From NCBI GenBank assembly GCA_030167865.1, contig JALAGF010006194.1, forward strand, positions 1-44,190: a DNA stretch of 44,190 nucleotides, given 5' to 3'. The notes beneath the pieces are model-generated. The model searched no databases. It was not told the origin of the DNA and saw only the letters and a list, made by a program, of their open reading frames with translations. The stretch is from Craspedostauros australis. Lineage: Eukaryota. The first letter of the stretch is position 1. Each line of letters starts with the position of its first letter. Positions 12,259 to 44,190 of this stretch are shown here, piece by piece. The position numbers were made by a program, and so were the translations under genes.

Positions 12259-15250
12259 ATGGACGGAGATGGAGACAAAGACGGAGGTTTGGGAGGACCA
12301 GGTGGTCACAGTGAAGCCAGTGACTTGCACGGTGATCCACCACCGCCACCACTATCGCGAACGGTGGAAGGCACGGGGCCCTCTGCAGATCAAGCACATT
12401 CGTTTATTCAGAATCAATGCGGTGTAGCTGATGGCCACGGTGGTCGCGATGATGCAGATCTTCGCTGCGGATCACAGGATGGGGTTTTCCACCCAGCGGC
12501 GATGCAAGCCATCATCGCAACAAGTGGACGACGTGTTTCAGCCACAGATTCCAACCGAAGCTCGGAATTCTTCGACTTAGAGGCCGAGCACGCGCAAATT
12601 CTGAAGGAGATTGAAAAGGAACGTGAAGGACAGCTAACGAATCCACAACAGAACGGCTCTACCGCCGACGGTTCAACCGATGACGGTTCAACCGAGCCTC
12701 CGCCAATGCTGATCGCGACGCCTCTGCCTCAGCACGGTGGTGCCGTAAAACTGCGTGCTTCTCAAATTCTGTCGCTGGTAGATGGTGATGAGACCATCGT
12801 CGCCAACGATGAGAATGAACACACCGACCGCCTTTCTTCCAGTCAACAAGCGGAACGAAAGCGACGTGATCACGATACGAACTACACGGTTTCTCTGGGA
12901 TACACCGAATCAACTGCAATGAGCAACACAGCGAGAATTGCGCCATCAGGGAAACAACTGCTGGCTGGAAATCTGCCAGGTGAAGAGGTCGGTGGATCGA
13001 TGACTTACCCTAAGTCTACGGGCAACACGAGCACGGAGGGCCATCTCCAGCATGCCCTATATCCGAAGTACTTCAACCAAGGGCACAAGCACAGTGGCGA
13101 TGCCGCTGACGAAAATGAGCTGTCTCGGATGCGGGCAAGCGAGCAGCAGGCTGGGCACCGTACATCATCTCGTCGAGGAGGTGACATGAGTGCCAAGCTC
13201 CAAATGGTGAGAGAAAAAGCGAGAACATCGGATGGCAGCGGACCGCAAAAGCGACAACTTCATAGACACTCCAGAGATCGTCGTAAGAGGTCGTCGGATC
13301 CGGACAGTCGCCGCCACTCACGACAAGATTTCAGCGACGGCCAGCATGACGCCGAACAGCTCGCGAATCTCGATGAAGTTGCGCTGATCGATGACGAAGT
13401 TGATGGCAGAAGACATGGAACGAAGAATGCGTTTGCTGACGATGTCACCCATGCGTCAACAGGCAACGAAAGGTCATCCCTGCTATCGGTGCTTCCGCGA
13501 GCAGGGTCGCCGGAGCACTCCGAGTATGATGGTAATGATGCACCGGGCAATGGAAGCGCATCAATTGCTCCTCTCCGCACAAACGATCAAGGTCGTGGCA
13601 ACAACAGCACCGATAACAGTACCGATGACAACACTGAAGAGGGAACGTCTGAGACAAGAATCTCTGAACCTGCTCCTCCAGCGCCGCCTCATATGCACGC
13701 TGTGTCTGCAGTCTTGGTCACCGACGATGATGCCAACCTGGATGAAAGGAGGAGCAACGCAAGACGCGAAGGCGTGGAAACAGCACGCCGCGAACTGGTT
13801 TCAGAAGATGTCGTGGCGAAGGTGACGGTTGTCGAGGAAAGACGGTTATGCAACCCGAGACTCGTCACTGTCGGAATCATCATGTTCATGGTTGTTGTCG
13901 GAGGTGTAGTTGGAGTCATCCTTGCCTTGCAATCATCTGATTCCGGCGCCCCGGCTACCTCTCCAACAAGCACGGATCGTGGCCCAGCACCGACGATGAA
14001 CTCACTCATGCCAACCACATCACTGGCCCCATCATCACTACCAACCGTATCCGCTGTTCCATCATCACAACCGACGGTATCCCTGGAACCCTCGTCACAA
14101 CCAACCATCTATTTTGCAACCGAGGCGGACAAGGAAGTCTACCTCCGGCAAACAAAAATAGCAGCAGTGGCGGGAGAAGTGTCCGGACAGGAAACCGTCA
14201 CATCGGACTTGATGAGGGCGTCAGCAGTCCAATGGTTGCAGATAAGGGATCGAACAATCACGTCGGCAACACCACGTGACATTATTGCCGAGCGGTACAT
14301 TATGGTTTTGGTGTACCTGACGATGGATGGTATCGTATGGGTTTTCGAGAACAACTTCATGGATAGGGACGAGACCACATGCCAATGGGGATCGATTGTT
14401 GATAGCTGGAGCCAACGGACCTTGTTGAAATGCGACGAAGACGATCGCATCACCGAGATCTACACAGATGGTGCCGCGATGACCTTTGTACTTCCCAGCG
14501 AAGTGGGAGCACTGGGACGCTTGGCACGCCTGGAGCTGAGCCGAAATCAAATCAGGGGGGAAATACCGACGGAATTGGGCAACCTCTCGTCGTTGACCCA
14601 TCTCGATTTGCGTACGTACGCTGTGATCAGCTTCGTGTGTTCGCAACGTTGATGCCGTTGCTGATCGTGACCGGTCATCCGCTGCTGCATAGAAATTGCC
14701 AGGGTTCTCTGCATTTCTCGCGACCATGTCACTGACACTGCTCTTACTCGTATTGTTGTTATTGTTGTTATTGTTGAAATGTATTGTACCACTTTAATCT
14801 GCTCTGCTCTTTCCCGTTGAGTCGTGCTCACACTCAACTTGGATTCAACTCTGCACTACTCCTACGTGCCCACGGCGTTCATACTCGAACCATACGTCGA
14901 TTCTTATATCAACACTACTCTCCATACGCAATCATGCGAATGGTGCAACAGATTCCAACGCATTCACCGGTGAAGTTCCCTCAGAACTGGGTCGACTAAG
15001 CAATCTTGAGGTCCTGTCCGTCAGTTCGAATGGCCGCCTCTCAGGAACTCTTCCTTCCAGCTTGGCGTCGCTGCCGCAACTGACCGAGTTGGAGGTCGAA
15101 AAAAGCGGGATTGACAACGTCCAGAACGTGTGTGACGCTGGATTGGAGATCCCCATCTTCATTGCGGACTGTTTGAAGGAGGGATTTGACTGTGATTGCT
15201 GCAGCAAGTGTTGCAAACTGGATGGTTCAAATAAACTACAGTGCGAGTAG
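12259..15250 (+). CDS. Type II membrane LRR receptor-like protein 1; exons 12259-14611 and 14952-15250
   Basis: Long disordered N-terminus, TM helix LVTVGIIMFMVVVGGVVGVILAL, S/T/P stalk, LRR N-cap (ERYIMVLVY...W...CQW...C) and plant-like LRRs (GEIPTELGNLSSLTHLDL). Phase-1 intron 14612-14951 (GTACGT...CAG) restores HSNAFTGEVPSELGRL. Ends in a Cys cap (DC...CDCCSKCC). Confidence 0.88.
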
Positions 15251-19432: not shown

Positions 19433-22085
19433 ATGAGAGAGGATGACAACAGAGAGAGGCATTCTGCGAGAGATGAGAACAGCGAAGCAACGCAGGATAA
19501 TCCGCCAGCAGAGACGATGCTCGCGATGGAAACATCTGCGGACCTGATGCTTTCGATTGTTCGAGATCGATACGAAGTAAACGGTGGAATGGCTGCTCCT
19601 TCTGCGACTGGCGATGGTGGTACACGAAACAACGCGGACCGTCTCTCTGACCGAAACCATGATGACCCAACCACGATGCAGACCATCATGGCCACAAGTG
19701 GGCACGGCGCTGGGGTCAATCCTGGAGCGGATCGTCTCGACATGCCAGGGCAAAATGAAGGCGTGAAGCTGCAGGCCTCCCAAATTCTTGCCCTGGTGGG
19801 CGACGAGACTATTGTCGACAGCCATGAGAGTGCTATCGGCACCAACGAGAAAGAGCTTCCTGACACCTTTTCTTCAAGAATACAAAAGGAACAGCGCAAT
19901 CAACCAGGCCAAGGTCAATACAAAGATAAAAATCAGTCTGTACCAGATTCAGGTGCCAATGAGATATCGCTGGAGTTCACCGAGTCAACTACAATGAGCA
20001 ACAATATGAGGATGACTCCGCCCACAAAGGAATTGCAACTGGAGGATCTGCCAAGTAGAAATGGCAATGCGATGTCAAAGGAGAGACCCATCGCTGGCTT
20101 GATGGGAGATCGACACTCTTCCCAGAGCCACCTACGACCGCCGACAGATTGGGAGCAATCAAAGCAACAACGTGGCCGCAACGCGGTTGAGGAACGCCAG
20201 CTGGCTCAGATGCACGAGACGGAGAAAGAGATGAGTCAGGCAAGAATGATGACGCAAGCCAACATCGCAGGCGCGAAACGGCGACCGTCGACGCAGACGG
20301 CGAGGTTTCTCACGATCACAACGCAGCCGATGGTAAATTCTGAGGAGCGCGGAGGTGGCCAAGCGTCATCATCGAGCGCACGGGGTCACAACCAATCCGG
20401 ACCAGTCGCATTGGTGAATCATGACGAGCACGCCGTCGAGCAAGCTGCTGATCTCAACGAAGGTATCTTGGCCGAAGCTGACTTTGGGCGTCCACAGACT
20501 GGAATGCCTGAGCACGATGATGAACTTATCGATGCGGTCGAACAAGGTTCGTCCCTTTACAGTGATAGCGGCGTTGGAACATCAGAAATTGGAATACCTG
20601 CGCCGATCGCTCCAGCGCCGCCCCGCATGCATACCGTGTCTGCAGTACTCGTCACCGATAATGATGATGACCTGGACGAAATGAGGAGTAAAGCAAGACG
20701 CGAAGGCGAGGAAGCGGCACGCCGCCAACTAGGTTCAGCAGGTGTTGCAGTGAAGGTGACGGCGGTCGAGGCAAAGAGTTTGTGCAGCCCGAGACTCATC
20801 ATTGTCGGAATCATCCTACTCGTGGTCGCTATTGGTGGTATCGTGGGGGTTATCCTTGCATTGCAATCATCAAATTCAGACACCCCGGCGATTGCACCCC
20901 CCTCTTCGGATGGCGCGAACAGTGGGGCACCATCGACGCTGACCACACTCATGCCAACCATGTCCCTTGCGCCATCATCACAGCCAACCATCTTCTTTGC
21001 GACCCCGGCAGAAAAGGAAGCGTATCTCCTTCGAGTCAAAATAGCAAAGGCGGCTGCAGAAGTATCTGGAGAGGCGTTGATAGTGACGGATGGCACGAGA
21101 CGGAATGCCGTGCAATGGCTACAGCACGAAGATCGAACGATCACATTCGAAACGCCGGATGCCATCATTGCCGAACGGTACATCATGGTTCTGATGTACG
21201 ACATGCTGGGCGGCTCGGGGTGGACCTTGGCCAACACCTTCAAGGCCGAAGACGAGACGACTTGCCAATGGGGGTCCCACGTCGACATCTTCTCGCAACT
21301 GACTATATTGGAATGCGACGAGGACAGCCGTATCACTGATATCTTCGCAAGAGATGGTGGGCCGACAGGCAACCTTCCTTCTGAACTGGGAGGATTGGGA
21401 CGTTTGACGAGCATGCGCATCGGCACCGGTGCCATTCGCGGGACGATACCGACAGAGTTCGGCAACCTCTCGTTGTTAACGCGCTTCAGCCTGAGTAAGT
21501 CCCGGAGGTATTCGAGGTGTTCTGCCTGATGTGTGCTCCTTGAGATGGCTGTGCAGGGCGTTGATGGCAGGCCAGTCTTTGCGGCACAAAGCAGGCCTCG
21601 GCACGGAACAACTCTCACGAATGCATGCTACCAATACTTTGATCTCATGTTGGCAACAAACCATCGGTTCATTTCAATTCGATTCGATTCCTCATTATCC
21701 ATGGCATCCGCGCGTTTATTGGCTTCACCTCACACTTACCACGCGCACATTCTGCACTCTATCTGCCATTGTTTGTATCCCAGGTCCCAATTTACTTTCC
21801 GGCAAGGTTCCATCAGAACTGGGTCGATTGATTAATCTTCAGTGGATATACCTCAATCACAACAAACAGCTCACGGGGACCCTGCCTTCCAGTCTGGCCT
21901 CGCTGCCCAATCTATCCGAATTGATGGTTCACATCACTGGGATCGACTACGTGCAGAACATGTGCGATGCTGGGCTGAACATTGACTTTTTCGTGTCCGA
22001 CTGTCTGGAGGAGGGAATCGACTGCGATTGTTGTTCAGTGTGTTGCAGATTGAACAGCTTCACCAACGAGATGGTGTGTGAGTAG
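19433..22085 (+). CDS. Type II membrane LRR receptor-like protein 2 (close paralog of protein 1); exons 19433-21494 and 21784-22085
   Basis: Same architecture as protein 1, with TM LIIVGIILLVVAIGGIVGVILAL, IAERYIMVL and DETTCQWGS. Phase-1 intron 21495-21783 (GTAAGT...CAG) sits at the equivalent position. Exon 2 reads PNLLSGKVPSELGRL...CDCCSVCC...CE*. Confidence 0.88.
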
Positions 22086-22771: not shown

Positions 22772-25057
22772 ATGTCTGATCACGACAACAACCGGAACCA
22801 ACGGCGACAGCATCAGCGCAACAATCACGATGATGAGGGGAATGACGATGACGATGACGAAGAGCAGCTGGACCGCGACCAACAGGCCAAGGCGGAAGAA
22901 GCGCGGAGGGCTGCCTTCATCATGAGCTTGTTGAACGACAGCGGAATTGATGGCAGCCAAAGCAACGCCGACGACGACATGATGGTTGGTTTGGAAGGCG
23001 ATGCTTATGAGAAGCCACCTGCGTACGGGATGAACGAAAGAGAATTGCCTGCGTACCGGTCCTTTCCTGCACTGACAAGCGAGCAACAGCGTGGCACCGC
23101 GGGTTTGCAGACGGTCGCTGTTGACAGCGAACAGAAGATGAGATGGCAGGCAGATGCAGTCGCGGTCGCTCTTGCGGATGGCAGGACCGAGATGATCAGA
23201 GAGAAAGAGCTCATGTCATCTGGGCAGATCGTAACCAACCCACAGCAGGGTCGCAACGTGAGGTCGGGGTACGAGACGGAGAAGGAAACATTTGCGCGTC
23301 GTGGCGATCATCAATCCGCCGAAGAAAACGCGAGCTCTCACCTTCCGATGCATGCGAAACTCCCGGCTGCAGAGAGAGCGTCGGCTGGAGAGAAGGTCGG
23401 AAACCGCATGGCAACAGAACCCCAAGCCGAAGGGTCTAAGAAGAAAATGCAGACTACAGCCACTACGTTGGCTGGTCGACAAACCACTGACGCCTCTGGG
23501 TTTACGAATGCACTCGCTGGCCACAAACCAGAGCCGATCGGCGCTCCGCAAATGTCGGAAGGGGGCAGGACAACGTCCAGCTTCTACGCTACGCTGCCGA
23601 CGCAGTTATCGCGCACACAAGACCGCAACAACCACGTGATACGCCCAGGCGCCATCCGTGTCCATCAGATGGCCGGTGGAGCCTACGCCGAACGCGCGGA
23701 TCAGGTGGTTCCCGATGACGGAACGGTGATTGGAAACAGCCTTGATTCTCAGGTTAGCATTGCCAGTGACATCAACGCACCTCCAAGTCTCTCGCTGACA
23801 AGGCACACAACGAATACGATCACGGCTGTCTCGGTCAATGCAGTTGATAATGACCACGTCGCAGTCGACGAAGAGGAGATATTGCAAGCTCGAGTCGAGG
23901 CGGCGGAAGACGCCAAGCAACAAATGCTCAAGGAGGCAGTGGTTGCAGATGCCTCGGACGGTCCTGACAATCCGAAGCGAATGCGAATGATGGTTTTGGT
24001 TGCGGCGCTGTGCATCGTGATTGTAGCCGCTGCCACGATTGGGGCCGTGCTCGCATCCAAATCGTCGTCATCGTCATCAGCGACAACAGGAGGTACGAGC
24101 ACGCTGCTATCAGATACGTCATCGTCGCCCTCAATGATTCCCTCCACCCAGCCCACGACGGAGCCGACGGACTTGCCTACCATAGATGAATCCGCCTCTC
24201 CCAGCACATCACCGACTCTCGCTCCGACCGCCGCGCCAACGCAACAGACATCGGTGGAACCAACATCGATGGAACAACAATTGATCGATCAGTACATCAC
24301 AGGGGTCGCCACGAACGTGACTGCTGGTCCACTCGATCTGTTCCCCCAACACGACGCACGCCTTTGGCTGATCAACAACGATCGATGGATCACGCTGGAC
24401 ACGGATCCCATCCTGGTGGCCGAGCGCTACAGCATGCTGGTGTTCTACATGGGAATGGGCGGGCCATTCTGGGAGCAGCAGTACCAGTTCCTGAATCCCG
24501 ACACCCACATTTGCGAATGGGGCGGCACGGCGGTGGATCCCGTCGACGGCCAACCGGTGCTTACCTGCACGAGTGCGGATCGAGTGAAGTCGATGTCGAT
24601 CATCCACAACGATCTGGCAGGTGCCATTCCATCTGAAATGGCAGCAATGGAGATGTTGGAAGTGCTGCGGTTGGAACGCAACCAGTTAGGAGGCACGCTA
24701 CCATCCGAGCTGGGGCTGTTGCATGGGTTGAAGACATTGAACGTCGCATACAATTACCTGAACGAGAATATTCCGACCGAAATCGGGAACCTGACGTCGT
24801 TGCAAATCCTAAAGCTGAGATGCAATCCATTCCTGGAGGGTTCCGTGCCGACGCAGCTGAATCAGCTGCTGGAGTTGAAAGAAGTGACTTTGGATCGCAC
24901 GAGGATCACCGACGTCGAGGTCTTGTGCGAGGTGCAGCGTCCGCTGTTCGTGTTGGCGGCGAATTGTCGAGCGGAACCACCGCTGGCATGCTCCTGCTGC
25001 TTCGGCTGCATCCGGCCGGGGTTGGAATGCGAACGAGAGTTGGTGGACGGGTCATAG
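22772..25057 (+). CDS. Type II membrane LRR receptor-like protein 3 (more divergent, intronless)
   Basis: ATG at 22772 (MSDHD). Disordered N-terminus with RPGAIRV, TM MVLVAALCIVIVAAATIGAVLA after KRMR, S/T/P stalk, N-cap AERYSMLVFY..MGG..W...ICEW, four to five LRRs (GAIPSEM, GTLPSELGLL, IPTEIGNL, GSVPTQL), Cys cap CSCCFGC. Confidence 0.88.
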   Translation: MSDHDNNRNQRRQHQRNNHDDEGNDDDDDEEQLDRDQQAKAEEARRAAFIMSLLNDSGIDGSQSNADDDMMVGLEGDAYEKPPAYGMNERELPAYRSFPALTSEQQRGTAGLQTVAVDSEQKMRWQADAVAVALADGRTEMIREKELMSSGQIVTNPQQGRNVRSGYETEKETFARRGDHQSAEENASSHLPMHAKLPAAERASAGEKVGNRMATEPQAEGSKKKMQTTATTLAGRQTTDASGFTNALAGHKPEPIGAPQMSEGGRTTSSFYATLPTQLSRTQDRNNHVIRPGAIRVHQMAGGAYAERADQVVPDDGTVIGNSLDSQVSIASDINAPPSLSLTRHTTNTITAVSVNAVDNDHVAVDEEEILQARVEAAEDAKQQMLKEAVVADASDGPDNPKRMRMMVLVAALCIVIVAAATIGAVLASKSSSSSSATTGGTSTLLSDTSSSPSMIPSTQPTTEPTDLPTIDESASPSTSPTLAPTAAPTQQTSVEPTSMEQQLIDQYITGVATNVTAGPLDLFPQHDARLWLINNDRWITLDTDPILVAERYSMLVFYMGMGGPFWEQQYQFLNPDTHICEWGGTAVDPVDGQPVLTCTSADRVKSMSIIHNDLAGAIPSEMAAMEMLEVLRLERNQLGGTLPSELGLLHGLKTLNVAYNYLNENIPTEIGNLTSLQILKLRCNPFLEGSVPTQLNQLLELKEVTLDRTRITDVEVLCEVQRPLFVLAANCRAEPPLACSCCFGCIRPGLECERELVDGS

Positions 25058-26212
25058 CTGGAGCAATACTCGTGTGAGTATGTGTGGTATTTCTGGAGTG
25101 CTAACTATTATAATATCGTGTGTAGTATGAGAAGAAAATTGAATCGAAATCATGTGGAAGTATTCTACGTGGAGGAGAGTCGTCTGCTATACCTCCTTGT
25201 CCATCTTTGCACCAATACCGAGCTCCCAGAACGATTTCCAGTCATGCAACCAAACCAACAACTCCGACTCGAAAGGAAAGCGCCGAAACGGAACGCATTT
25301 TCGGGAACAAGTCGACCTTTGTGTCACAATGACTATCACTTGTTGTGCGACCTATCCTCAGTCGGAGTCGCCATCATCGCAACAAGGCGATGCGTGGAAT
25401 GGACCAAACAGCGAGATGGCCCTTGGGGCATCGCCGCGCCGATCGTCCTTGTGACAACCATCTTGCCTGAGATGAGATGAAGGCTCGTCAAGAGGAAAGA
25501 GCGTTGCGCATCGATCTGTGGAGTTGCAAAAGTTGGTGCAGCGTCTCGGAGTTGCTGTCTTGTCTCGTTCGTAGACTTCTTGCGGTAATCTCATTCCCGT
25601 CATGACCGTGCGTTAAATGAGATTGCGCCCACGAGACATGTCTCTCGACACATTTATGGCAATCGCAACACGACTAACGCGTGACACAAGACCAGTTTTT
25701 CCACGATCCCATCGCGAAGCGTGGAAGCAGTTTGTGGCGGTGGGAGGAATTTTCGTCAAGGGTGTTTGGCGCCCACGTTGTTGGTGGTTGTGGCGATGTT
25801 GTGTGGTTGGTGTTTGTGGCGTTGTTGGTTGGAGGTGCATCGTCTCTTCGCTGTCTGCGCTCTCTTGCATCCATTGGTTGTTGTATTGAACGGCGTCGGC
25901 AACGACCATTGATGATACTGCACTGTCGTGTTGTATAGCATCTGTAGAGTGAGGCGAAGTTGATCATCCTTGATAGAAAAAACGGCAACCATCAACGGCC
26001 GCAACAAAGGCGATCATTGAATTGCGACGAACAACAGAGGCAGCCCAATCGAGAGCATCCACAGTATCTGCAGATCGAACTTGTAGCACAGAGAGGGTGA
26101 CAGAGGAACTTCCATCAATCAAGTCCGCCAGTCCGCCAACACTAGCATCAATCAGTAACGACAACAATCAACAATCAACAACAATCAGTAACGACAACAA
26201 GCAACAACGACA

Positions 26213-29200
26213 ATGCGACGCCTCTCCGCCATCAAACGGCTGACGACGAAGCTGAACAACAACCAGACGAACGACTGGGACACCAACACGGGCAGCGTGG
26301 ATGAGTTGGGCAGCATCCATTCCACGCAGTCGGAGGAGGAGGAGGACATCCAGCCCTTCTCGCAGCACATCCTGGGCATCTCCGACAGCAGCCACCATCT
26401 CAGCAGCAACGGCGACGAAGAGTCTGAGTCGTCGGACAACATTTACGTGGAGGATGACAAGGAGAGCGAAGATGATGAGGATGACGAGGATGATGATGAG
26501 TATGATGATGAATATGATAGTGAAGAGGAGGGCAGCGAGGGAGGCAGCGAGTGGGGCGAAGACGATGAGGATGACGAGGATGAGGATGACGAAGAGGAAG
26601 GCAGCGAGTGGGACGATGAGGATGAAGAGGAGGGCAGCGAATGGGAAGATGAGGAGGGTGACGAAGACGAGGAAGGCAGCGAGTGGGAGGACGAAGAAGG
26701 AGAAGAGGGCAGCGAGTGGGACGATGAGGATGAAGAAGATGGAGAGGAAGAGTCTGAGTACGAGGATGAAGACGAAGACGAGGATGAAGATGAAGATGGA
26801 GAGGGCGTAGAGTCGGAATACGAAGACGAGTACGAAGAAGGTGCATTCAACGACAACGCATCGCAGCAGACCGACGGATACGATACCTTCGCGGCGGGAA
26901 TGTCGACCAGAACGGGCAACGCCGCTCCCTTGTTCGCTCCGGATGTCGAGAATCAGGAGAGCAAGGACTTCCGCTCCAAGGAGGCCGAGAGGAGCAGGGA
27001 GCAGCGCATGCGCACCCAGAAACGGCGGCAATACCTCCTCATTGCCATCATCTGCGCCTTCCTCGTCATCGGCGCCGTCCTGGCCGTCTTTTTGCTGGGG
27101 CTGTTCGATAGCAGCGACAGCGGCGTCAATCAATCCAGGAGCGCCGTGTCGACACCATCGCCCACGCAGATGGCCACGCCCGCGCCCACCATCACCAATT
27201 CCAGCGCACCCACCGTGCAACCGTCGGCATATCCGAGTGATGCGCCCACCATCTCGCCGGCGCCCATCAGACAACCGTCGGTGCAGTCGCCCGTCTCGGT
27301 CCCGACCATCTTTATGGAGACCCAACAGCCGACGCCGCTGTCATCGCAGGCACCCACAACATCGCCCAGCGCCGCGCCCTTCTTCTTCAACAACACCATC
27401 GAAGTTGCGGTCGCGTACATCATCATGCTGCCGCAGACCACGAACGAGAGCGACTACACGCAGGATCTCGTCTCCGCCATGGATATCATGTCGCAGGAAG
27501 TGTGGCAGCAGGGTTCCTTCGTCAGTTCGCCGCAGCGGCAACGCAGAAGGCGGGCGCTCTTTCCAAATCTGCGCAACAGCCATCGCAACGCGTTGCAAGA
27601 CCGCGAGCGGCAGCAGCAACGGCGCAGGCTGGAGACCCGGCTCGTGCAGCCGACGACCATCGACTCCATGGAGCCGACAGGTACGCAGCATGGTTTGTGT
27701 GTTGTTTTGTTCGACTTGTTGCGTCTGCATTGTCAACATCATTGATCGGTCGACCGGCGCGGCACAACTCTCACACCATCCTCTTCTCACTTCTTCCCTT
27801 CAACTCTGCACATACCAATGCACGTCGCTTTCCACAACAGTCTGCCCCGGATCCATTTTCAATCCCAACGACGTCTGTCACACGGTCACGGCTGCCATCG
27901 AGATCCGCACGACGGAAGAGACAGCCAACATCAACGCGGACGCCTTCGGCAGCGCCATGCAACAATCCATCCGCGTCGGCCGCTTCCAAGAGATCTTGAC
28001 GGAGGATGTGCAATCCACGGCACCCATCGCGGTTCTACCCTTGGTAGATAACAGCCCGCCATCTGCCACGACGCTGCAACCCACGGCATCCATGGCGCCG
28101 ACTCCGGTAGCGACCAACTTCGAACTCAATCTCACGCAGTTTCCGACGCCCAACAATGATAACATCTTCAATCATACCGGCGCGCCGTCGGTGATGAATG
28201 TCACGACCGCGACGCCGACCATGATGCCGACCGAAATGAATAATACCGAGGCGCCCACGATGATGCCGGTGAATGCGAATGCAACGTCCGGTCCAACCAT
28301 GATGCCAACTGAAAGCAACAGTACAATGGCGCCAACCATGATGCCAGTTGATGCAAATTCAACTTCAGGTCCAACGATGATGCCAACCGAAAGGAATAGT
28401 ACAAAGGCACCAACCATGATGCCAGTGAATGCGAATACAACTTCAGGTCCAACCATGATGCCAACTGAAATGAATAGCACCAAGACACCAACGATGATGC
28501 CAATTGATTCAAATGCAACTTCGGGTCCAACCATGATGCCAACTGAAATGAACAGCACAAAGGCGCCCACGATGATGCCAGTGAATGCGAATGCGACTTC
28601 AGGTCCAACCATGATGCCAACTGAAATGAATAGCACCAAGACACCAACGATGACGCCGGTGAATGCGAATGCAACTTCGGGTCCAACCATGATGCCAACT
28701 GAAATGAACAGCACAAAGGCGCCCACGATGATGCCAGTGAATGCGAATGCGACTTCAGGTCCAACCATGATGCCAACCGAAAGCAACAGTACAAAGTCGC
28801 CAACTATGATGCCGGTGAACGTGAATGCAACTTCGGGTCCAACTATGATGCCAACCGAAAGCAACAGCACCAAGACACCAACTATGATGCCGGTGAACGT
28901 GAATGCAACGTCCGGTCCAACCATGATGCCAACTGGAAGCAACAGTACAAAGGCGCCGACTATGATGCCCGCCGACGCGAATGCAACTTCAGGTCCAACG
29001 ATGATGCCAACCGAAAGTAACAGCACAAAGGCACCAACCATGATGCCAGTTGATGCAAATGCAACTTCAGATCCAACCATGATGCCAACTGAAATGAACA
29101 GTACAAAGGCCCCAACCATGACGCCGGTGAACGTGAATGCAACGTCTGGTCCAACCATGATGCCGACCGAAATGAATAGCACCAAGGCTCCAACCATGAT

Positions 29201-32200
29201 GCCAGTTGATGCAAATGCAACTTCAGATCCAACCATGATGCCGGTGAACGTGAATGCAACCTCAGGTCCAACCACGATGCCAACTGAAATGAATAGCACC
29301 AAGGCGCCAACCATGACACCGGTGAACGTGAATGCGACGTCAGGTCCAACCATGATGCCAACCGATATGAATAGCACAAAGGCACCCACCATGATGCCCG
29401 TCGACGCAAACGCAACTTCGGGTCCAACCATGATGCCGACCGAAAGCAACAGCACCAAGGCACCCACCATGATGCCGGTTGACACCAACGCGAGTTCGGG
29501 CCCAACCATGATGCCGACCGAAGGCAACAGCACCAAGACACCAACGATGATGCCGGTTGACACCAACACGACTTCGGGTCCAACCATGATGCCAACCGAA
29601 AGCAACAGTACAAAGACGCCAACTATGATGCCGGTGAATGCGAATGCGACCTCAGGTCCAACCATGATGCCAACTGAAAGCAACAGTACTCTGACACCAA
29701 CCTTGACGCCGGTGAATGCAAATTCAACTTCGGGTCCAACCATGGTGCCAACTGAAATGAACAGCACCAAGGCTCCAACGATGATGCCAATTGATTCAAA
29801 TGCAACTTCGGGCCCAACCATGATGCCAACTGAAATGAACAGCAGAAGGGCACCAACGATGACGCCGGTCGACACCAACACGACTTCGGGCCCAACTATG
29901 ATGCCGACCGAAATGAACAGTACAAAGGCGCCAACTATGATGCCGGTGAATGCGAATGCGACTTCAGGTCCAACCATAATGCCAACTGAAAGCAACAGAA
30001 CAAAGGCACCAACCTTGACGCCGGTGAATGCAAATTCAACTTCGGGTCCAACCATGATGCCAACTGAAATGAACAGCACCAAGGCTCCAACGATGATGCC
30101 AATTGATTCAAATGCAACTTCGGGCCCAACCATGATCCCGACAGAAAGCAACAAGACGGGTCTGGGTGCGACTGCCACGCCCACTGTGACACCGCTGGAG
30201 ACGAACAGCACGGAAGCACCAACCAAGGCACCAGTCGAAGCAAATGCAACATCGGTTCCAACAATGATGCCAACAGTGCAGGCTGGCAACGGGACGGTTG
30301 ATTCCAACGAAACCGAAAGTTCGACGCCATCAAGCGGTCCTACAACCAGCATACCTCCAACATCATCGCCAACACCAGCGCCAACACCAACCAATGCAAC
30401 TTTTGCAGAGACGGCAATGCCAACAACGTCAGTCAATGCAGGAGAAAGCACAGGTATGCCCACTACTGTTGTGAATAATGGCACCACTACCATCAGTGCT
30501 GAACCGACATCACCACCAATATTCATGACTAACACAACAGAAATGCCAACTTCCGTTCCATCGATGTTCAACGAAAATACCTCTGCTCCAACCAGCATGA
30601 ACACAACAGCAAGTCCAACACCCTTGATCGACGACAACAGCACAGCAACTACCATGCCTTCAGTGCAGCCAACAGTCCATGATCGGACAGAATCACCGAC
30701 GGTTGCACCATCGACAAGTAACGGAGACGGCAATTCAACAGATATGACCAGCCCACCAACCACGGTCAACACATCAATAACCACTGCTAGTCCAACACTG
30801 CAGCCATCGATGTTGCCGACGGTGTTGCCGACAGCAATGAACATCTCAACCGATGCGCCCACTCAGTTGCAAGGGAACAATGGTACTGGTTCACCAACGA
30901 TGGAACCAACAGAATTGAATGCCGAAACGCCGGCACCAACTATGGTAGACGACAACACAACACAAATGCCAACAACTGCGGGTGTTTCGACAGAAGCTCC
31001 AACTGTCGCCCCAACTGTCGCATCCAACGTGAACTCCACAACCACATTCGCACCAACCATGCGACCGACTTCAGCGAACATGACAGCTGGAGGGACATCC
31101 GCGCCTACTCCCACCGAGGTCAACGCAACAGCCGACACAGAAATGCCTAGCCAGGTCCCGACGTCAATGCCAACACCATCTGAAGGCACCCCGTCTCCAG
31201 CACCAAGCACGACACCAAGCGATGCTCCGATTTCCACCAATGCGACTGCAACATCGGCGCCAACACCAATTCTATCAATGGAGAATACGACAACAGCATC
31301 GCCGACAATATCTCCATCGATGCAGAGCGCCCCACCCACTGGTGCCCCATTTGCGCCGTCGAATGAGACAGAATCGAGTCCACCGAGTGCAGTACCTACT
31401 CCTGCAGATATGGGCACGACGACGACGCCAACTGGCATGCCATCAGAGTTTCTGAATGGGACGTCATCGAATCCCCCAAGCGAAGCACCTGTTTTTGCGG
31501 AAGTTAATCGAACTGCGGCGCCAACCGGCATGCCATCCAAGGCTAGCAAAGCAGCATCGACTGCCATGCCCAGCGAATCGCCGACTCCTACAAGGATGGG
31601 GGCAAATTCAACCACATCGCCAACCGGCATCCCAACGGCACGAAACGCCACAACGGTGGCACCAACACCTGCCCCAAGTAATGCAAACGAAACAGCCGAC
31701 ACAGAAACGCCAAGTCAGGTCCCGACGTCAATGCCAACACCATCTGAAGGCGCCCTGTCCCAAGCACCAAGCACGACACCAAGCGATGCTCCGATTTCCA
31801 CCAATGCGACTACAACATCGGCGCCAACACCAATTCTATCAATGGAGAATACGACAACAGCATCGCCGACAATATCTCCATCGATGCAGAGCGCCCCACC
31901 CACTGGTGCCCCATTTGCGCCGTCGAATGAGACAGAATCGAGTCCACCGAGTGCAGTACCTACTCCTGCAGATATGGGCACGACGACGACGCCAACTGGC
32001 ATGCCATCAGAGTTTCTGAATGGGACGTCATCGAATCCTCCAAGCGAAGCACCTGTTTTTGCGGAAGTTAATCGAACTGCGGCGCCAACCGGCAGGCCAT
32101 CCAAGGCTAGCAAAGCAGCATCGACTGCCATGCCCAGCGAATCGCCGACTCCTACATGGATGGGGGCAAATTCAACCACATCGCCAACCGGCATGCCAAC

Positions 32201-32480
32201 GGCACGAAACGCCACAATGGTGGCACCAACACCTGCCCCAAGCAATGCAAATGAAACAGAGACGGAGCCTGAGGAGTCATCCGTCGCTCCAACTCCCGCG
32301 AACACGAAGGTGCCAACCATCGCTCCGACCATTGCACCAACGGACTCCCCATCGACAATTCCAACGGTTGGGGTAGCCACGTCCGAACCCAGCGAACAAC
32401 CAAGCGCAGGTTCCGAACCACCAACTGAGGCTGAGGAGACCTTTTTGGAGCAAGATGGGGTGAACATATTCTCAGCGTAA
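26213..32480 (+). CDS. Giant type II membrane mucin-like (PT-repeat) glycoprotein, about 2035 aa; exons 26213-27680 and 27841-32480
   Basis: A phase-1 intron 27681-27840 (GTACGC...AACAG) joins the ORF 26213 frame (acidic region, TM YLLIAIICAFLVIGAVLAVFLLGLF) to the ORF 26841 frame (V-CPGSIFNPNDVCHTV...). Spliced length 1468+4640 = 6108 nt, in frame. Confidence 0.82.
26441..26840 (+). repeat. Asp/Glu-rich coding repeat with EEGSEW(D/E/G) units
   Basis: Repeated ga(g/a)ggcagcga(g/a)tggg units encode GSEWGED, GSEWDDE, GSEWEDE (x2) and GSEWDDE, then SEYEDE twice. Confidence 0.9.
28215..30164 (+). repeat. Coding tandem array: 50 x 39 bp (13 aa) units, alternating A/B (78-bp higher-order repeat)
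   Basis: A = PTMMPTEMNSTKA, B = PTMMPVNANATSG. 50 units counted in the translation, and 50 x 39 = 1950 bp matches the coordinates. Confidence 0.95.
31128..32258 (+). repeat. Near-identical 564-bp (188 aa) tandem duplication in the ectodomain
   Basis: Copy 1 starts acagccgacacagaa at 31128 and copy 2 at 31692. The translations differ at only a few residues (for example EGTPSP vs EGALSQ, GMPSK vs GRPSK, PTRM vs PTWM). Confidence 0.95.
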
Positions 32481-32708: not shown

Positions 32709-33599
32709 CTACAGCATCTGTCGTTTATTCGCCGTATTTTGGTACGGCCGCAACACGTATTCATTCTCTGCCTCCTTCTGATCCAACGTGCCCAGCCGGA
32801 TTTGATACAACCGCATCTCGAACCTTGGCCCCACCTCGTGCAACGTGACGGAATCATTCGCCGCCGCTTTGCTGTACATGTGATGCCGGAAGGAGATGAA
32901 GTCGTTGTCATTGGAGAATGTGATCACGCGTTTGGAATCATGGCGCGGCACGGGGAACAGACACTTGAGGATGTTGCCGACCCGTTTGCCCAGCTGCGAT
33001 TCGAAGTTGTTCAGGATCAAGTGCGGATAAGCCTCCGACATGGGCGCTGCCGGTGGATCCAGATCGTGCCGCATGACGGTGTTGCTCAACGAGAAGAAGG
33101 CAGTCGGTCCCATTGGCAGATGGCACACCACCAATCCATCCGGCTCACCGCGCGTTTCCTGCACGATGATGACGTCGGTGAATTCGGACTGCTTGCAGGA
33201 CTCCATGAGTTCGTCGACGCGGCTGTTGCCACGATTCGTGCGCACGGAATTGGGAACAAGCAGCTTGACCTCCTTGACGAACTGCTTGAGGCGCGAGCTG
33301 GGTTCGCGGGCGGTTGTGACGCACACGCGCGGTTCGATCAACCCGGCGTCGCCGTACTCATCGTCGATGTGCGATTTTGGCGTGGCCGTCGTGATGTCCT
33401 CGGCATCGATCTGTTGTCGCAACGTGTCGTACGAGGCCCGGACCTCGGTGGGCAGCGGCTTGCCCGATGCCAGGGCCTCGCGGATAACGCGTTTCTGTTC
33501 GTACGTCGCCTTCTCACGTCCTTCCAGCGACTTGCGGTACATGTACTCGCGGCGCAATCGCGTTTGGCGGCGTCTTGAGGCTGAGTCGATGGGTGCCAT
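32709..33599 (-). CDS. IMP4: U3 snoRNP protein IMP4 (Brix domain)
   Basis: RRQTRLRREYMYRKS, IDDEY, VTTAREPSSRLKQFVKE, HLPMGPTAFFSLSN, YPHLILNNF, DFISFRHH, sigma-70-like motif EVGPRFEMRLYQIRLGT, EYVLRPY.NTA.K. Confidence 0.95.
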   Translation of the reverse strand: MAPIDSASRRRQTRLRREYMYRKSLEGREKATYEQKRVIREALASGKPLPTEVRASYDTLRQQIDAEDITTATPKSHIDDEYGDAGLIEPRVCVTTAREPSSRLKQFVKEVKLLVPNSVRTNRGNSRVDELMESCKQSEFTDVIIVQETRGEPDGLVVCHLPMGPTAFFSLSNTVMRHDLDPPAAPMSEAYPHLILNNFESQLGKRVGNILKCLFPVPRHDSKRVITFSNDNDFISFRHHMYSKAAANDSVTLHEVGPRFEMRLYQIRLGTLDQKEAENEYVLRPYQNTANKRQML

Positions 33600-39260: not shown

Positions 39261-42200
39261 ATGCACACATCATCACCTGGCTTGAATCAACTGGCACCAA
39301 ACGGCGATGGCGTCTCCGCCGTCGTGGGTCGTCTACCGCCAGGCACCGATCCCGCCGATACTTCAGGAAACAGCAGCCATCGCCCGGGCAACTCCCGCCG
39401 CCTGCGGGTGTGGCTGGCCGTGTCACTACTGGTCCTCGCGGTCGTCATCTCTGGAACCATTTTGGCAACCCGACGTACAAGTGGCCGTAGTAGTAGCAAT
39501 AGCAGCAGCAGTGGTGGTAGTAGTACCAATGGCGGTGTCAGTCCAAGAAACAATGCTGATGGCAAACCAGAAACCCCAATCTACTACGACGATAGCACCG
39601 ATTCACTGCCTACCGACTCACCATCCTCCGGCGTCGACTTTCGCGACGGGGTATCGGACGAGGACGACCCCATCTCTCCCGCAACCGAAACTCCAGTACC
39701 AGACGTGAGCGAAGATACTAGTAACACCACCGACTCTGGTGACGCGGCAGCGGTACAGACCTATTCGTGCCCCAGCGATGAATCGCAACCCGCAGTGGCA
39801 GTCAGCCCTGGGAGCATCCGAATTACGCATTCTACTCCTTTGTGCACCCTCATCCGTGTCTCCTCATCCATGACGTCCTTCCAGCCAATTGCACGACCCT
39901 ACAACAACAAACCTTGGAAAGTGGTCGGCTCCACGGAAGCAATGGAATCATCTCCCAACTCGGTCCAAGTCGACCAATGCGGAGAAAGCGCTTGCACGGC
40001 CCAACTGCCAGCTCCAGAGGAGGGCCACACCTACGAGCTCAAGACCTTCGATGCGCCGGCGTACTCAGACCGGGACATCATCTCTCGCTTCTTGGAGCAA
40101 ACAACATTCGGTGTGACGAGCGCAGCCCTCGATCAGATGGAGGCGGAATACGATGCATCGTCATTCTCGGACTTGAACGATGTCTTCGCCAAGTGGATCG
40201 AAGACCAGCAGGATACAACCAAAACGCCAATCCAATCCCATCGCGCCTTGTTCCGCCAGTTTTTGAATGCGCAATTCGAGATCCCAACCATCATCGGTCG
40301 CACCACCCAACCATGCGAAGTTGGCACCAGATACCGCCACGAGGTCTTCATCGACAAGGACATCGGGACCTTCATCGAACTCAAGACCGTCACGGGATCA
40401 AACGGGCAACGTCTGCGCGCCATTTCCAAGGTCCGCAATGGTGTTGCAAGACTTTACACCATCGTTGACTTCACCATGTACGACTACGACTATGCGCACG
40501 ACTCCGACAGCGAAGCATATGTTCCCACCACACGGTGGGATCAGGATGGTTTGTACACTATCTGCTGGGTCGACGGATCCATCTACGTTGAAAACGCGGA
40601 CAGGACGGAGTGTCACAGAATGATCTTCAAGGACCCGGCACTCCCGGCCTTCCAATGGGAGGAAGCGTTCTTGGTGAATCCGTTCGTCACCAGCGCGGCC
40701 AAGGACGCCATCCTCGCATCAAGCGACAGCATCGTGCTGAACGTTCCCACCTCATCGCAGATTCTGAAGCCCATCGACCAGCAATACTATTTGGACTATG
40801 ACGAATACCTCCCGTTGCGACACTACATCCTCGCGAACAGCATGGCAGACTCGCAATGCAACACAGCAACCTTTGAACCGAATGTGCCTGTCTTTGTCCA
40901 ACACGGTACGTCAACAGAGGTGCCCCAAGCCTACAGACATGTCCCCCACCATCACCCTATCTCACCATTCCAATGTCCCTGCTGCTTCTGTTTCTCCTCT
41001 TTACGCACTTGCCGCTGCTTGATTGTGCTGAAACATGAACCTTCGCAACCAAATCATCACACAACTACTACTACCACCACCAACAACACCACCACCAACA
41101 ACAACAACATCGCATCAAACAGGCGACGACATGCTGATCCATGATCCACGCTTCAAGTTGTTGGACAACACGCTCGAGAATGTCCTCCCAGATGGCGGTG
41201 GCCAGGTCTTCGCAGATCATGCCGACCTCCTCGATCCGTACGAGACAGCGCACTGCGCCAACACCCCACGAACCTTCCTGAACGAAGACAACTGCTACGT
41301 CTCGACATCACCCTCCGCTTGCTCACCGCTGATGGGCTGGGTGAACCGCGCACCCGATGTTGAGACCGGCTACTTCACACTGACCGAAGATCTCATCCGC
41401 AAACTGTACAAGGAGACCGGAGGCACCGAGGATGATAGTTCCGCAACCACGCGATACTGGTATGCTGTCCAGGGACTCGACCAAGCACGACAGAAGCTGA
41501 CCGACCCAAAGCCATGCGACCAGTACTCTCGTTCCCGCTGGATCCCAGTCACGTGCAACAGCGCTGAATTGGGAGCTGTCAACGCTGGTGTCGCAACCAT
41601 GTTCTCCGCCCTGATATCCAACACCAAAGCGTGGTTGAGCGAGCAGAACGACATGAATCCTTACATGATGGATGTTTGGCTGTGGGACGATGATCGACAA
41701 TGCCCAGACGGACAGCGTGATACTGCCATCGATTTCATGGTCCAAGACGACGACGGTGACTGCTGGAAGAATGTGCACCAAGATCACCTGAACGTGTACG
41801 ACTTCACCGAATGGGTCAACGGCGGGCATAACGGCGGCCCAACACCCATTGCCGCATTTGCCAAACAGGGCAGCGCTCGTCTCAACTTTCCCGGGTGGCA
41901 TGAAATGTCTCGCTGGAACAACAAGAAGGGCGGCTTTGGCGGTCCGTGGCGATTGGGTGATGAGGTCAACTTCTACCAGTTGCCACGCGAGATGCGCAAT
42001 GAAGAAATGGCGAAGATCTTCGGCGTCACCTTGCTGGAACCAGGCGATCCGGAACTCACACAGGGATACGGTTCGCTGTCAGGTGTCGGAACGGTCGTGT
42101 GCGGAAGCCCATACGAAGTGGCCAACGATCCAACCAACGGAGGCAGTGTCGCAAACGGAGGCCGGATCAACCGAGGTTCATTCGATGCCTACACTCGTCG

Positions 42201-42707
42201 CTTCTCCACATCTTACGAGCTGTTCGAGCACCAGAACAAATATGTATGGCTCAAGGCCACAGTCGAGAATGAAGTGGATCAGCTCCGCCAACGCATGGCG
42301 TGGGCATTGTCGCAGATCCTCGTCATCACTCCCGACGGTGCTGATGCAGACCTCTCCACCGAACCATTCCTGGTTTACTACGATACCTTCGTAAGTACAA
42401 TACATTCCATGGTGGGGTTCCATGTTATCTGCGTGAATCTATTCACGATCACGCAGCACATCTGTCTCGACTTTGATTCCTCTACTGATGCTCTCGTCGA
42501 TGCTATCATTGGTCACGGTGNNNNNNNNNNNNNNNNNNNNNNNNNNNNNNNNNNNNNNNNNNNNNNNNNNTATTCACGATCACGCAGCACATCTGTCTCG
42601 ACTTTGATTCCTCTACTGATGCTCTCGTCGATGCTATCATTGGTCACGGTGATGAATCAATCCTTCATTCAACCCACCCATGTATCTAACCCTGTTCTCA
42701 TTTCAAC

Positions 42708-42750
<43 letters not shown>

Positions 42751-44190
42751 GGTGCTATCTCTCTCCACTTTCACACCAACACGCAACAGGTCCGTCATGC
42801 ATTTGGGAACTACCGTGACGTGCTCAAGGAAGTCTCGTACAACCCCTTGATGGCCAACATGCTCACATACTACAACAGTCAATCAACTGCATTCGTGTAT
42901 CAGCGCGACGGAGTGGTGGAATACGCCGATGAAAACTTCGCCCGTGAGGTGATGCAGCTCTTCACGACCGGCTTGTTCCAACTCAACATGGACGGCACAA
43001 AGATCCTGGACGAAGCTGGCAACCCCAAGCGCGTGTACACGAATGAGGACATCGGTGAGTGAGACGAGGCTACGATACCGATGGAGATGACTTCACCTGG
43101 AAACGCCATGATGTGGATACTGGCACCGGTAGCGATGGTGTGCTCTGCGCTGCTCTGCTCATGGACGTCCTGATCTGCTCTTGCCAACCCATCGACTCAC
43201 TTTGCCTGTATGGTACTCCATTTACTCTCAACCAATGACCACTGCGCCACGACGCAACCCCATGATGATGAATTGGTTACTGTACGTACTATGATTGCTT
43301 CCCTCTCCCTTCTATCCACCCATCCTCCCTTCCTTTCTTACCCAACAACACGCAGAGGAATATGCAAGGGCGTGGACTGGATTCGAGCAACAGCAAGTCC
43401 GCGGAAATGCAGAAAACCTCTGGAGAAACTACATCGACCCCATGTACATCCGAGAGGAATGGCGTGATCGCTTCCCCAAGATGGGACTCAACCGCAAGTA
43501 CGTCGGTGACGGATACCCTCTGTGTGCCGACCTCCCGGATGATCACTTCCTCCAGCCAGGTGCGGTCTACCGATTCCTTGGACCCAACCCACACCCAGAG
43601 TTGCACTCGGACATCGACGCATGGAAGACAGATCCATCGGCGCAACGGTTCAAGCTCGACGCAAGCAACAGCGGACTCTACACAAAGCTGTGCAATCCTC
43701 GAGGAGACGGATCCTGTGACTACAAAACCAAGATCGTGCTGGATAAACCAATTCAATGCTCTGGCAAGGAATGCCGCATCGACACCGTGCGAACCGTGGA
43801 GGTATCAGCCGGCATGTACTACGAGTACATCCGCAAGCCTTGCGTGCACCAATCGTTTTACGAGAACGCGAAGACCATCATCCGACACTGGGAATGGGGT
43901 GAATACATGTGCGCCGATCCCAGGACCGAGTCTGCGATCGTCGCGTGCTGCAAGACGAACCCAACCAACAACTTCTACGACGACGTGTACTGGGGCGAGC
44001 GCACCAAGTTCTCCACAGCATTGGATGCCTGCGACGAGCAACTGTGCAGTGAATGGCCACGTCCCGATTGCGAAGCTCAGGATGATACTTCGGCAGCATA
44101 CACGAAGTGCTGGGATCCAAATCACTTCTGGACATCCGAATCGTGCACTCTCAAGGCGAAGATCAGCGGAGATGGCAAGGTCGGCATCGT
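39261..44190 (+). CDS. Large type II membrane DUF1800-domain protein (3'-partial); exons 39261-40905, 41123-42390, 42790-43054, 43356->44190
   Basis: TM VWLAVSLLVLAVVISGTILA. DUF1800-type motifs RFLEQTTFG, DQLRQRMAWALSQILV, YYDTF|VRHAFGNYRDVLKEVSYNPLM, DENFAREVMQLFTTGL, YTNEDI|EEYARAWTGF. Three GT-AG introns (40906-41122, 42391-42789, 43055-43355) all restore the frame. Confidence 0.85.
42521..42570. other. Assembly gap (50 N) flanked by an 81-bp duplicated sequence, within intron 2 of the DUF1800 gene
   Basis: 42440-42520 is identical to 42571-42651. Confidence 0.95.
42709..42747 (+). repeat. (TC)n microsatellite in the intron polypyrimidine region
   Basis: About 19 TC units upstream of the acceptor AG at 42788-42789. 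Confidence 0.95.

Follow-up and report, generated by a model that had tools for sequence, protein, structure and literature searches.

A probable lineage-restricted, mucin-like type II membrane glycoprotein encoded by a predicted two-exon gene of the raphid pennate diatom Craspedostauros australis

The surface and trail material of raphid diatoms is known from published descriptions as glycoproteins rich in Pro, Thr, and Ser (PTS), often specific to one species. The closest described examples are CaFAP1, the Trailins, Ca5609, and the GDPH/CAA proteins of Amphora coffeaeformis, giant proteins of raphid origin with PTS-rich repeats and presumed glycosylation that are species restricted; as described, they have an N-terminal signal peptide, no membrane anchor, and CAA, GDPH, vWA-like, or Cys-rich modules. 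Here we describe a gene at positions 26,213 to 32,480 of a 44,190-nucleotide contig from Craspedostauros australis (JALAGF010006194.1 of assembly GCA_030167865.1), the whole of which is called the window below. Our preferred reading, to which we assign a probability of roughly 0.6, is that this gene has two exons, belongs to a raphid pennate diatom, and specifies a mucin-like glycoprotein of 2,035 amino acids (aa) that is lineage restricted and anchored in the membrane in type II orientation. The predicted protein resembles the trail proteins in the traits they have in common and differs from them in its signal-anchor, its long cytosolic tail, and an ectodomain with only two Cys residues. PF20597 (CAA) was not found when both exon products were scanned with Pfam at E values up to 1, and GDPH was not searched for separately.

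The locus appears as two open reading frames (ORFs), 26213..27745 and 26943..32480, which are not in the same frame and which an initial annotation of this DNA had joined into one protein across a 160-bp intron. A donor, GTACGC preceded by cag, begins at 27681, and an acceptor, ...CCACAACAG, closes at 27840, delimiting a predicted intron of exactly that length. Splicing 26213-27680 to 27841-32480 in silico gives 6,108 nt and 2,035 aa with a sole, terminal stop codon, and an in-frame TAA lies 24 nt 5' of the ATG. Because the exon 2 frame stays open far 5', as many as 155 GT..AG pairs preserve the frame; an extended cagGTACG donor together with a pyrimidine-rich AACAG acceptor occurs only at 27681/27840. 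Introns of two neighboring genes have sites of the same kinds (GTACGT...CAACAG and GTAAGT...CCCAG). A codon-usage log-odds score, trained on 3,707 codons from other genes of the window, is positive in the exon 1 frame until ~27680-27740, is ~0 in both frames within the predicted intron, and is positive in the exon 2 frame from ~27800-27830 onward.

The predicted intron also divides a small membrane-proximal module, and the two module halves were co-folded as separate chains. The interface score ipSAE was 0.40 compared to 0.00 for the best control, the predicted local distance difference test (pLDDT) value was 61 to 62 with the partner and 48 with the others, and contacts agreed between runs to at least 80%. 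This grades as weak support: 51 of the 78 solved complexes attained the mark, as did 2 of the 108 mismatched pairs, and passing scores of 0.60 or less came from 5 of the 78 solved complexes and from all 4 passing mismatches. Lacking a hydrophobic segment, exon 2 would be unable to reach the secretory pathway by itself, yet it bears most of the N-glycosylation sequons of the protein. We regard a single gene with two exons, joined over the 160-bp intron, as highly probable, in agreement with the initial annotation; splicing of 27681-27840 is predicted from the splice consensus, the switch in coding potential, and the weak co-folding. The features of the gene and its product are listed in Table 1. 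The 5' leader abutting the ATG (26149-26213, + strand) carries four copies of a 16-bp tandem repeat, CAATCAACAACGACAA.

Table 1. Predicted features of the mucin-like gene and its product (positions are those of the window)
Feature	Position	Strand	Basis or remark
Exon 1, aa 1-489 plus base 1 of codon 490: cytosolic tail, TM, PTS stalk, module first half	26213..27680	+	ORF, coding potential
Hyper-acidic tract, aa 81-205 (125 aa): D/E 91, K/R 1, Trp 5, Tyr 4	26453..26827	+	composition count
Five GSEW(G/D/E) units	26543..26725	+	motif scan, tandem-repeat analysis
YDTF, sole Y-x-x-hydrophobic motif of the tail, 47 aa ahead of the TM	26879..26890	+	pattern match only
Single transmembrane (TM) signal-anchor, aa 273-297	27029..27103	+	Kyte-Doolittle, window 19, maximum 3.19
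Pro/Thr/Ser-rich stalk, aa 298-392 (95 aa)	27104..27388	+	composition; weak alignment to leucine-rich-repeat (LRR) genes
Module first half, non-repetitive, aa 393-489	27389..27679	+	sequence; AlphaFold2 (AF2) low confidence
Basic loop, aa 440-474, with RQRRRRAL and QQRRRL	27530..27634	+	motif scan; candidate processing sites
Predicted intron, 160 bp, GTACGC...AACAG, T- and pyrimidine-rich	27681..27840	+	consensus, coding potential
Exon 2, aa 490-2035 plus stop	27841..32480	+	ORF, joined translation
Module second half, aa 491-556	27843..28040	+	both ectodomain Cys (491, 502) here
Array of 50 units of 13 aa in register, TMMPTEMNSTKAP alternating with TMMPVNANATSGP, 78-bp period, aa 616-1265	28218..30167	+	repeat analysis
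Thr/Pro/Ser/Ala-rich C-terminal region, less regular, ~770 aa	30168..32477	+	end not hydrophobic
Recent tandem duplication, 564 bp; copies 574 bp, 97.2% alike	31122..32259	+	16 mismatches, 0 gaps

Hydropathy was computed on the Kyte-Doolittle scale with a window of 19 and a threshold of 1.6. Across the 2,035 aa, windows above the threshold start only at aa 271 to 285, where the peak given in Table 1 falls. The hydrophobic segment is preceded by QKRRQ and followed by the acidic, Ser-containing FDSSDSG, and N-x-S/T sequons number 2 ahead of it and 90 past it. Hydropathy and flanking charge indicate a type II, N-in orientation without a signal peptide, as the initial annotation had proposed from the KRRQ and the single helix behind it.

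The ectodomain that follows comprises 1,738 aa. It had been described as about 1,700 aa of mostly P/T/S-rich sequence, a length that is borne out and a composition that was understated, as Met and Asn are abundant too and the region is strictly periodic. Its 13-aa array, 650 aa in total, has the unit consensus T-M-M-P-x-x-x-N-x-T-x-x-P. T1, P4, and N8 are present in 50/50 units, T/S10 and P13 in 49 each, M2 in 46, and M3 in 42, and Met makes up 15.7% of the array (102 residues). Shuffling predicts 17.5 +/- 3.4 sequons for the array (2,000 shuffles; maximum, 30), where 49 are found, and 35.2 +/- 5.0 for the whole ectodomain, where 90 are found. Between array units, the proportion of synonymous differences (pS) is 0.50 and that of nonsynonymous differences (pN) is 0.10, a ratio of 0.19 to 0.21 (25 plus 25 units). 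With pS near saturation and pN low, the array is old and maintained at the protein level, not a fresh minisatellite; as a comparison among sequence units, the pN/pS of about 0.2 shows purifying selection.

The Pfam scan returned, in total, Lysostaphin_N and a sub-threshold DUF6548. PF25533 Lysostaphin_N matched the array with 95.7 bits against a cutoff of 60, in seven stretches confined to the array. We read this as one 13-aa repeat matching another, a likeness of periodic low-complexity sequence, and consider homology improbable. A Lysostaphin_N label on 28218-30167 is probably false, and automatic annotation would spread such an assignment.

The sole non-repetitive luminal part is the module at aa 393-556 (~165 aa), which the predicted intron splits. 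On the luminal side, R-x-L occurs just twice, as RAL (aa 447) and as RRL (aa 471), both times in the 35-aa basic loop of this module. The loop also contains the only two R-x-[KR]-R matches of the whole protein, and 13 of the 30 ectodomain Arg residues fall in aa 430-480. Shedding of the brush at these RR-x-L sites is a reasonable inference, predicted at the motif level. Single-sequence AF2 models render the first half all-helical and the second half without secondary structure. Language-model look-alikes of the module are all sub-threshold (0.84 for an unnamed cluster, 0.81 for SEA, and 0.76 for Bacillariophyta), and in the Pfam scan the SEA domain was not matched in either exon product, E values up to 1 included. 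A SEA-like or Notch-HD-like fold is a guess.

On the cytosolic side, the initial annotation had counted five GSEW(D/E/G) and two SEYE units in a tail of about 270 aa. All of these are present, in a tail of 272 aa with 120 D/E and 17 K/R residues; the GSEW[DEG] units start at aa 111, 130, 141, 155, and 166, and the SEYE units at aa 181 and 201. SEW is found five times where 0.17 is expected, a count that none of 20,000 composition shuffles reached. The DNA of the Trp units consists of tandem repeats with periods of 33 and 75 bp, built on the core codons GGC AGC GAG/GAA TGG, in which 59 of 60 core bases match and the flanks differ. The SEW excess thus comes from DNA tandem duplication, so the five units are not independent, and the near identity of the cores marks the fivefold valency as repeat expansion, not as five separate conservations. 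A motif scan of the tail found no D[DE]W, WxxF, LC3-interacting region (LIR) pattern, or di-leucine. The CK2 consensus, S-x-x-[DE], is matched by four SEW[DE] and two SEYE sites, and acidic clusters and YxxPhi motifs are signals of cycling membrane proteins. From its sequence, the tail is probably a generic multivalent acidic-aromatic disordered region that is phosphorylated. By analogy, sorting or vesicle transport is a more ordinary and more likely role for it than force transmission, and it may dock onto a basic pocket of some cytoskeletal adaptor.

To place the protein among known sequences, the module halves and the array were used as queries against collections that include proteins of Cylindrotheca, Amphora, Phaeodactylum, Fistulifera, and Seminavis. 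HMMER with the exon 2 module half (76 aa) gave 0 matches at E values up to 0.001 among 1,835,955,588 protein representatives. Against proteins of 849 to 2,704 aa, the same half (75 aa) yielded 18 candidates, none of which scored, and the exon 1 half (aa 396-489) against longer proteins yielded 24, again with none scoring. In JGI metagenome contigs, the exon 1 half had 555 pattern matches and 338 aa of the array had 48, none of them relatives, and both halves drew 0 matches from PDB sequences at E values up to 10. The initial annotation had suggested a search of raphid, araphid, and centric diatoms for homologues of the TM-proximal module, and none came to light in these collections, raphid species included. 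As the module queries are short (76 to 105 aa), such blank searches are weak evidence.

The host itself is placed by the convergent neighbor IMP4 (32712-33599, - strand), which by sequence identity groups it with the raphid pennate diatoms, near the Bacillariaceae. IMP4 is 87% identical to that of a Bacillariaceae sp., 86% to Cylindrotheca closterium, 83% to Amphora coffeaeformis, 80% to Phaeodactylum and Fistulifera, and 77% to Seminavis and Chaetoceros, with none above 87%. The stop codons of the mucin-like gene and IMP4 are only 228 bp apart (32480/32709), so that their 3' untranslated regions must overlap or be very short.

We propose that the signal-anchor would carry the long C-terminal part into the endoplasmic reticulum, where the ectodomain would become an extended brush with dense N-glycosylation and probable O-glycosylation. 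The glycosylated brush would be a component of the cell-surface coat or mucilage, and the two RR-x-L sites of the module would permit its shedding or its transfer to the wall. The tail would most probably serve in sorting or transport of carrier vesicles or in low-affinity docking of basic cytosolic partners. The nearest architectural parallel is with the MUC1-type tethered mucins, which have a single-pass anchor, a long Pro/Thr/Ser repeat brush, and a small membrane-adjacent non-repetitive module at which shedding may occur. As in tethered mucins, tandem PTS repeats form most of the ectodomain (the 50 units plus the ~770-aa region). In contrast, MUC1-type mucins are type I, whereas the diatom protein is predicted to be type II, builds its repeats on N-x-T and Met-Met-Pro, and has a 272-aa hyper-acidic cytosolic part. 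The PTS-rich, often species-specific nature described for raphid surface and trail material supports the mucin-like reading from its context.

Several points weigh against this reading. AF2 modeled the module halves with low confidence (mean pLDDT, 59.5 and 54.2), and the topology is taken from hydropathy and the positive-inside rule only. Neither the module halves nor the array has homologues in the collections searched, so conservation gives function no backing, and a young or decaying gene is conceivable. Lastly, we infer glycosylation, surface location, RR-x-L cleavage, and tail partners each from the sequence.

The most probable alternative, though we think it unlikely, is that the anchor serves for delivery only. 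Cleavage at RR-x-L along the secretory route or inside the silica deposition vesicle (SDV) would then leave a soluble or frustule glycoprotein, and the membrane stub would be recycled or degraded. Both R-x-[KR]-R matches do cluster with the sole luminal R-x-L motifs, in 35 aa of the module. Processing at RXL sequences such as RRL, by an unknown protease, has been described in diatom biosilica-associated proteins, among them silaffins, cingulins, Sin1, and SAPs, and TpSAP3 is reported to be cleaved, with its luminal part retained in silica (PMC5647440, PMC5525289). Silicanin-1 (Sin1) and SAP1-3 are, like the protein described here, single-pass diatom membrane proteins with luminal RXL, and a link between lumen and cytosol has been proposed for them in the published accounts. 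However, the membrane proteins known from the SDV have type I topology, begin with a signal peptide, and carry an N-terminal RXL. As described, Sin1 exposes 20 aa to the cytosol and has 18 Cys in an NQ-rich domain, and the SAPs combine a Ser-rich luminal part with a conserved cytoplasmic domain; the C. australis protein, compared with them by description, is type II, with 2 ectodomain Cys and a T/P/M/N-rich luminal part. Its ectodomain has neither the Lys-/Ser-rich character of silaffins nor an NQ-rich or Cys-rich domain, no pentalysine-like clusters were noticed in the ectodomain sequence, and the cleavage is a prediction from motifs.

It is quite improbable, in our estimate, that the gene model is wrong or the gene non-functional, which could mean two separate genes, a type II protein of 510 aa made from a retained intron, or a repeat-rich pseudogene that evolves fast. 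The 155 frame-compatible GT..AG pairs, the weakness of the co-folding support, and the lack of homologues in any search would fit such an outcome. Exon 2 alone, however, has no start context for a signal peptide and no hydrophobic segment, though it is built of sequons, and its 4.6-kb frame runs unbroken through the repeats. A pN/pS of about 0.2 across units points to selection on the protein, the splice sites fit the local consensus, and the coding potential shifts at the predicted borders.

Still less credible is a reading that puts the Met-Met-Pro array at the core, as a surface brush for capturing soft metal ions, Cu(I) for instance, or as a sacrificial sink for oxidants, in place of an adhesive or mechanical function. 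Met clusters are Cu(I)-binding motifs in Ctr1-type transporters and bacterial copper proteins, and the abundant Met of the array, at both M2 and M3, has been kept despite a synonymous divergence of 0.5. Yet canonical Cu(I) spacing is M-x-M or M-x-x-M, and the array offers MM-x-x-x-M or MM only; Pfam and HMMER gave no homology to metal-binding families, dense glycans may hide the Met residues, and a literature search for Met-rich diatom surface repeats returned nothing relevant among the matches listed.

The initial annotation had put forward, as a hypothesis and next to an SDV or frustule anchor, a different role, that of a transmembrane connector between actomyosin and the secreted adhesive strands in raphid gliding. 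The acidic Trp tail would then couple to actomyosin and the brush to the strands. In an equally doubtful version, a multivalent acidic Trp/Tyr tail would engage the raphe actomyosin directly or via an adaptor, a half-micrometer N-glycosylated Met-rich brush would pass through the raphe, and the RR-x-L module would be the release point for letting go and for reversal. The gliding model on which this drew does hold a transmembrane connector, still as a schematic element, in a published figure legend (PMC13056149); the model requires such a complex, as drawn it names no protein for it, and the trail proteins described so far lack an anchor. The predicted protein crosses the membrane once, between a long cytosolic tail and an ectodomain ~0.5 to 0.6 µm in length; the contour length of aa 557-2035 is ~0.52 µm at 0.35 nm per residue. 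The raphe slit of C. australis is reported to be 300 to 500 nm, the same order, so the brush could pass through the wall to the outside. IMP4 groups the host with raphid pennates, and because trail proteins are often described as species specific, the missing homologues count only weakly against a motility role, and orphan status is not fatal. Set against this, one would expect conservation of a core motor coupling, which ought to show up in Cylindrotheca, Amphora, or Phaeodactylum, and no homologue was found in collections holding five other diatom genera; moreover, the number of Trp units stems from repeat expansion, and the RR-x-L sites lie between anchor and brush, where cleavage could cut the link.

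Three likenesses of the tail had been invoked for that role. The first was to the apicomplexan adhesins TRAP and MIC2, single-pass surface proteins of gliding cells with Trp amid negative charges in a cytosolic tail. Apicomplexan adhesin tails bind aldolase through aromatics amid negative charges, and binding of TRAP to aldolase requires a terminal Trp with negative charges in the C-terminal tail of a type I protein. These adhesins are type I, with vWA/TSR domains, whereas the diatom protein has an N-terminal tail with internal Trp and a mucin-like brush; its Trp residues, at aa 114-169, are >110 aa from the N terminus and 104 to 159 aa from the membrane. No vWA, TSR, or WH2 domain was found in the Pfam scan of both exon products, which thus gives the connector no CAA, vWA, or TSR adhesive domain, and we know of no myosin-binding motif with which the tail could be compared.

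The second likeness, to the acidic ends of WASP, is undercut because Arp2/3 is reported missing in many diatoms. The third, to the W-acidic motifs that bind kinesin light chain, holds in part. Like kinesin-1 cargo adaptors of the calsyntenin/SKIP type, the diatom protein has several copies of Trp (and Tyr) flanked by acidic residues on the predicted cytosolic side of the membrane, and EW[DE][DE] occurs in 4/5 Trp units, with EWGE in the remaining one. In the SKIP peptide TNLEWDDSAI, however, Leu at position -2 is reported to fill a pocket (PMC6214655), whereas position -2 of the diatom Trp is Ser in 5/5 units and [LMIVT][DE]W[DE] is matched in 0/5, so the Leu/Met at -2 that kinesin light chain requires is missing. 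Literature on kinesin light chain in diatoms yielded nothing relevant among the matches listed. The architecture behind the connector proposal thus stands at the sequence level, its functional step is weakened by the motif, topology, Arp2/3, and homologue results, and, kept alive by the brush length without a gain in support, it is the least probable of the readings considered.

Type II anchors with Ser/Thr/Pro stalks are frequent in the window, being present in three LRR genes and in the gene at 39261. The LRR genes, at 12259-15250, 19433-22085, and 22772-25057 (+ strand), encode three paralogous type II membrane proteins upstream of the mucin-like gene and on the same strand, with a long disordered cytosolic N terminus, one TM, and a Ser/Thr/Pro stalk that leads to LRRs and a C-terminal end rich in Cys. 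An intron interrupts the LRR region at the same place in two of the genes (GTACGT...CAACAG and GTAAGT...CCCAG), and the third has no intron there. The TM and stalk of the mucin-like protein align to the three with 32 to 34 bits (E values of 4e-5 to 2e-4 in a three-sequence database), a likeness that is possibly compositional. Common descent with the LRR genes is left undecided, the alignment being limited to the TM and PTS stalk at this score. Downstream, the frames 39261-41144 and 41035-43062 (+ strand) encode a type II protein with a short basic N terminus, one TM, and a Ser-rich stalk, which probably extends past an intron to a large luminal domain of conserved appearance. Within the + frame 41035-43062, positions 42521-42570 are 50 N, either a gap in the assembly or masked sequence, and the flanking translation looks partly duplicated and of low complexity, with an SLSLSL run. 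At the other end of the window, an open frame at 3-2237 (+ strand) runs off the 5' end and, by eye, resembles a Ty1/copia-type reverse-transcriptase/RNase H polyprotein.

Seen from its sequence, the mucin-like protein is a well-described orphan whose 13-aa Met-rich N-x-T array and hyper-acidic tail are unusual among PTS-rich surface glycoproteins and tethered mucins. It would be a rare type II tethered mucin, and its T-M-M-P...N-x-T...P array, kept by selection, would be a natural scaffold for studies of dense N-glycosylation and of Met-rich surfaces. The locus also suggests that short introns splitting giant diatom surface proteins conceal them from ORF-based gene calls. Since the gliding model needs a transmembrane complex and the known trail proteins are described as secreted and anchorless, a single-pass protein with a brush that may cross the wall merits a place on the short list, as a legitimate candidate for the connector.

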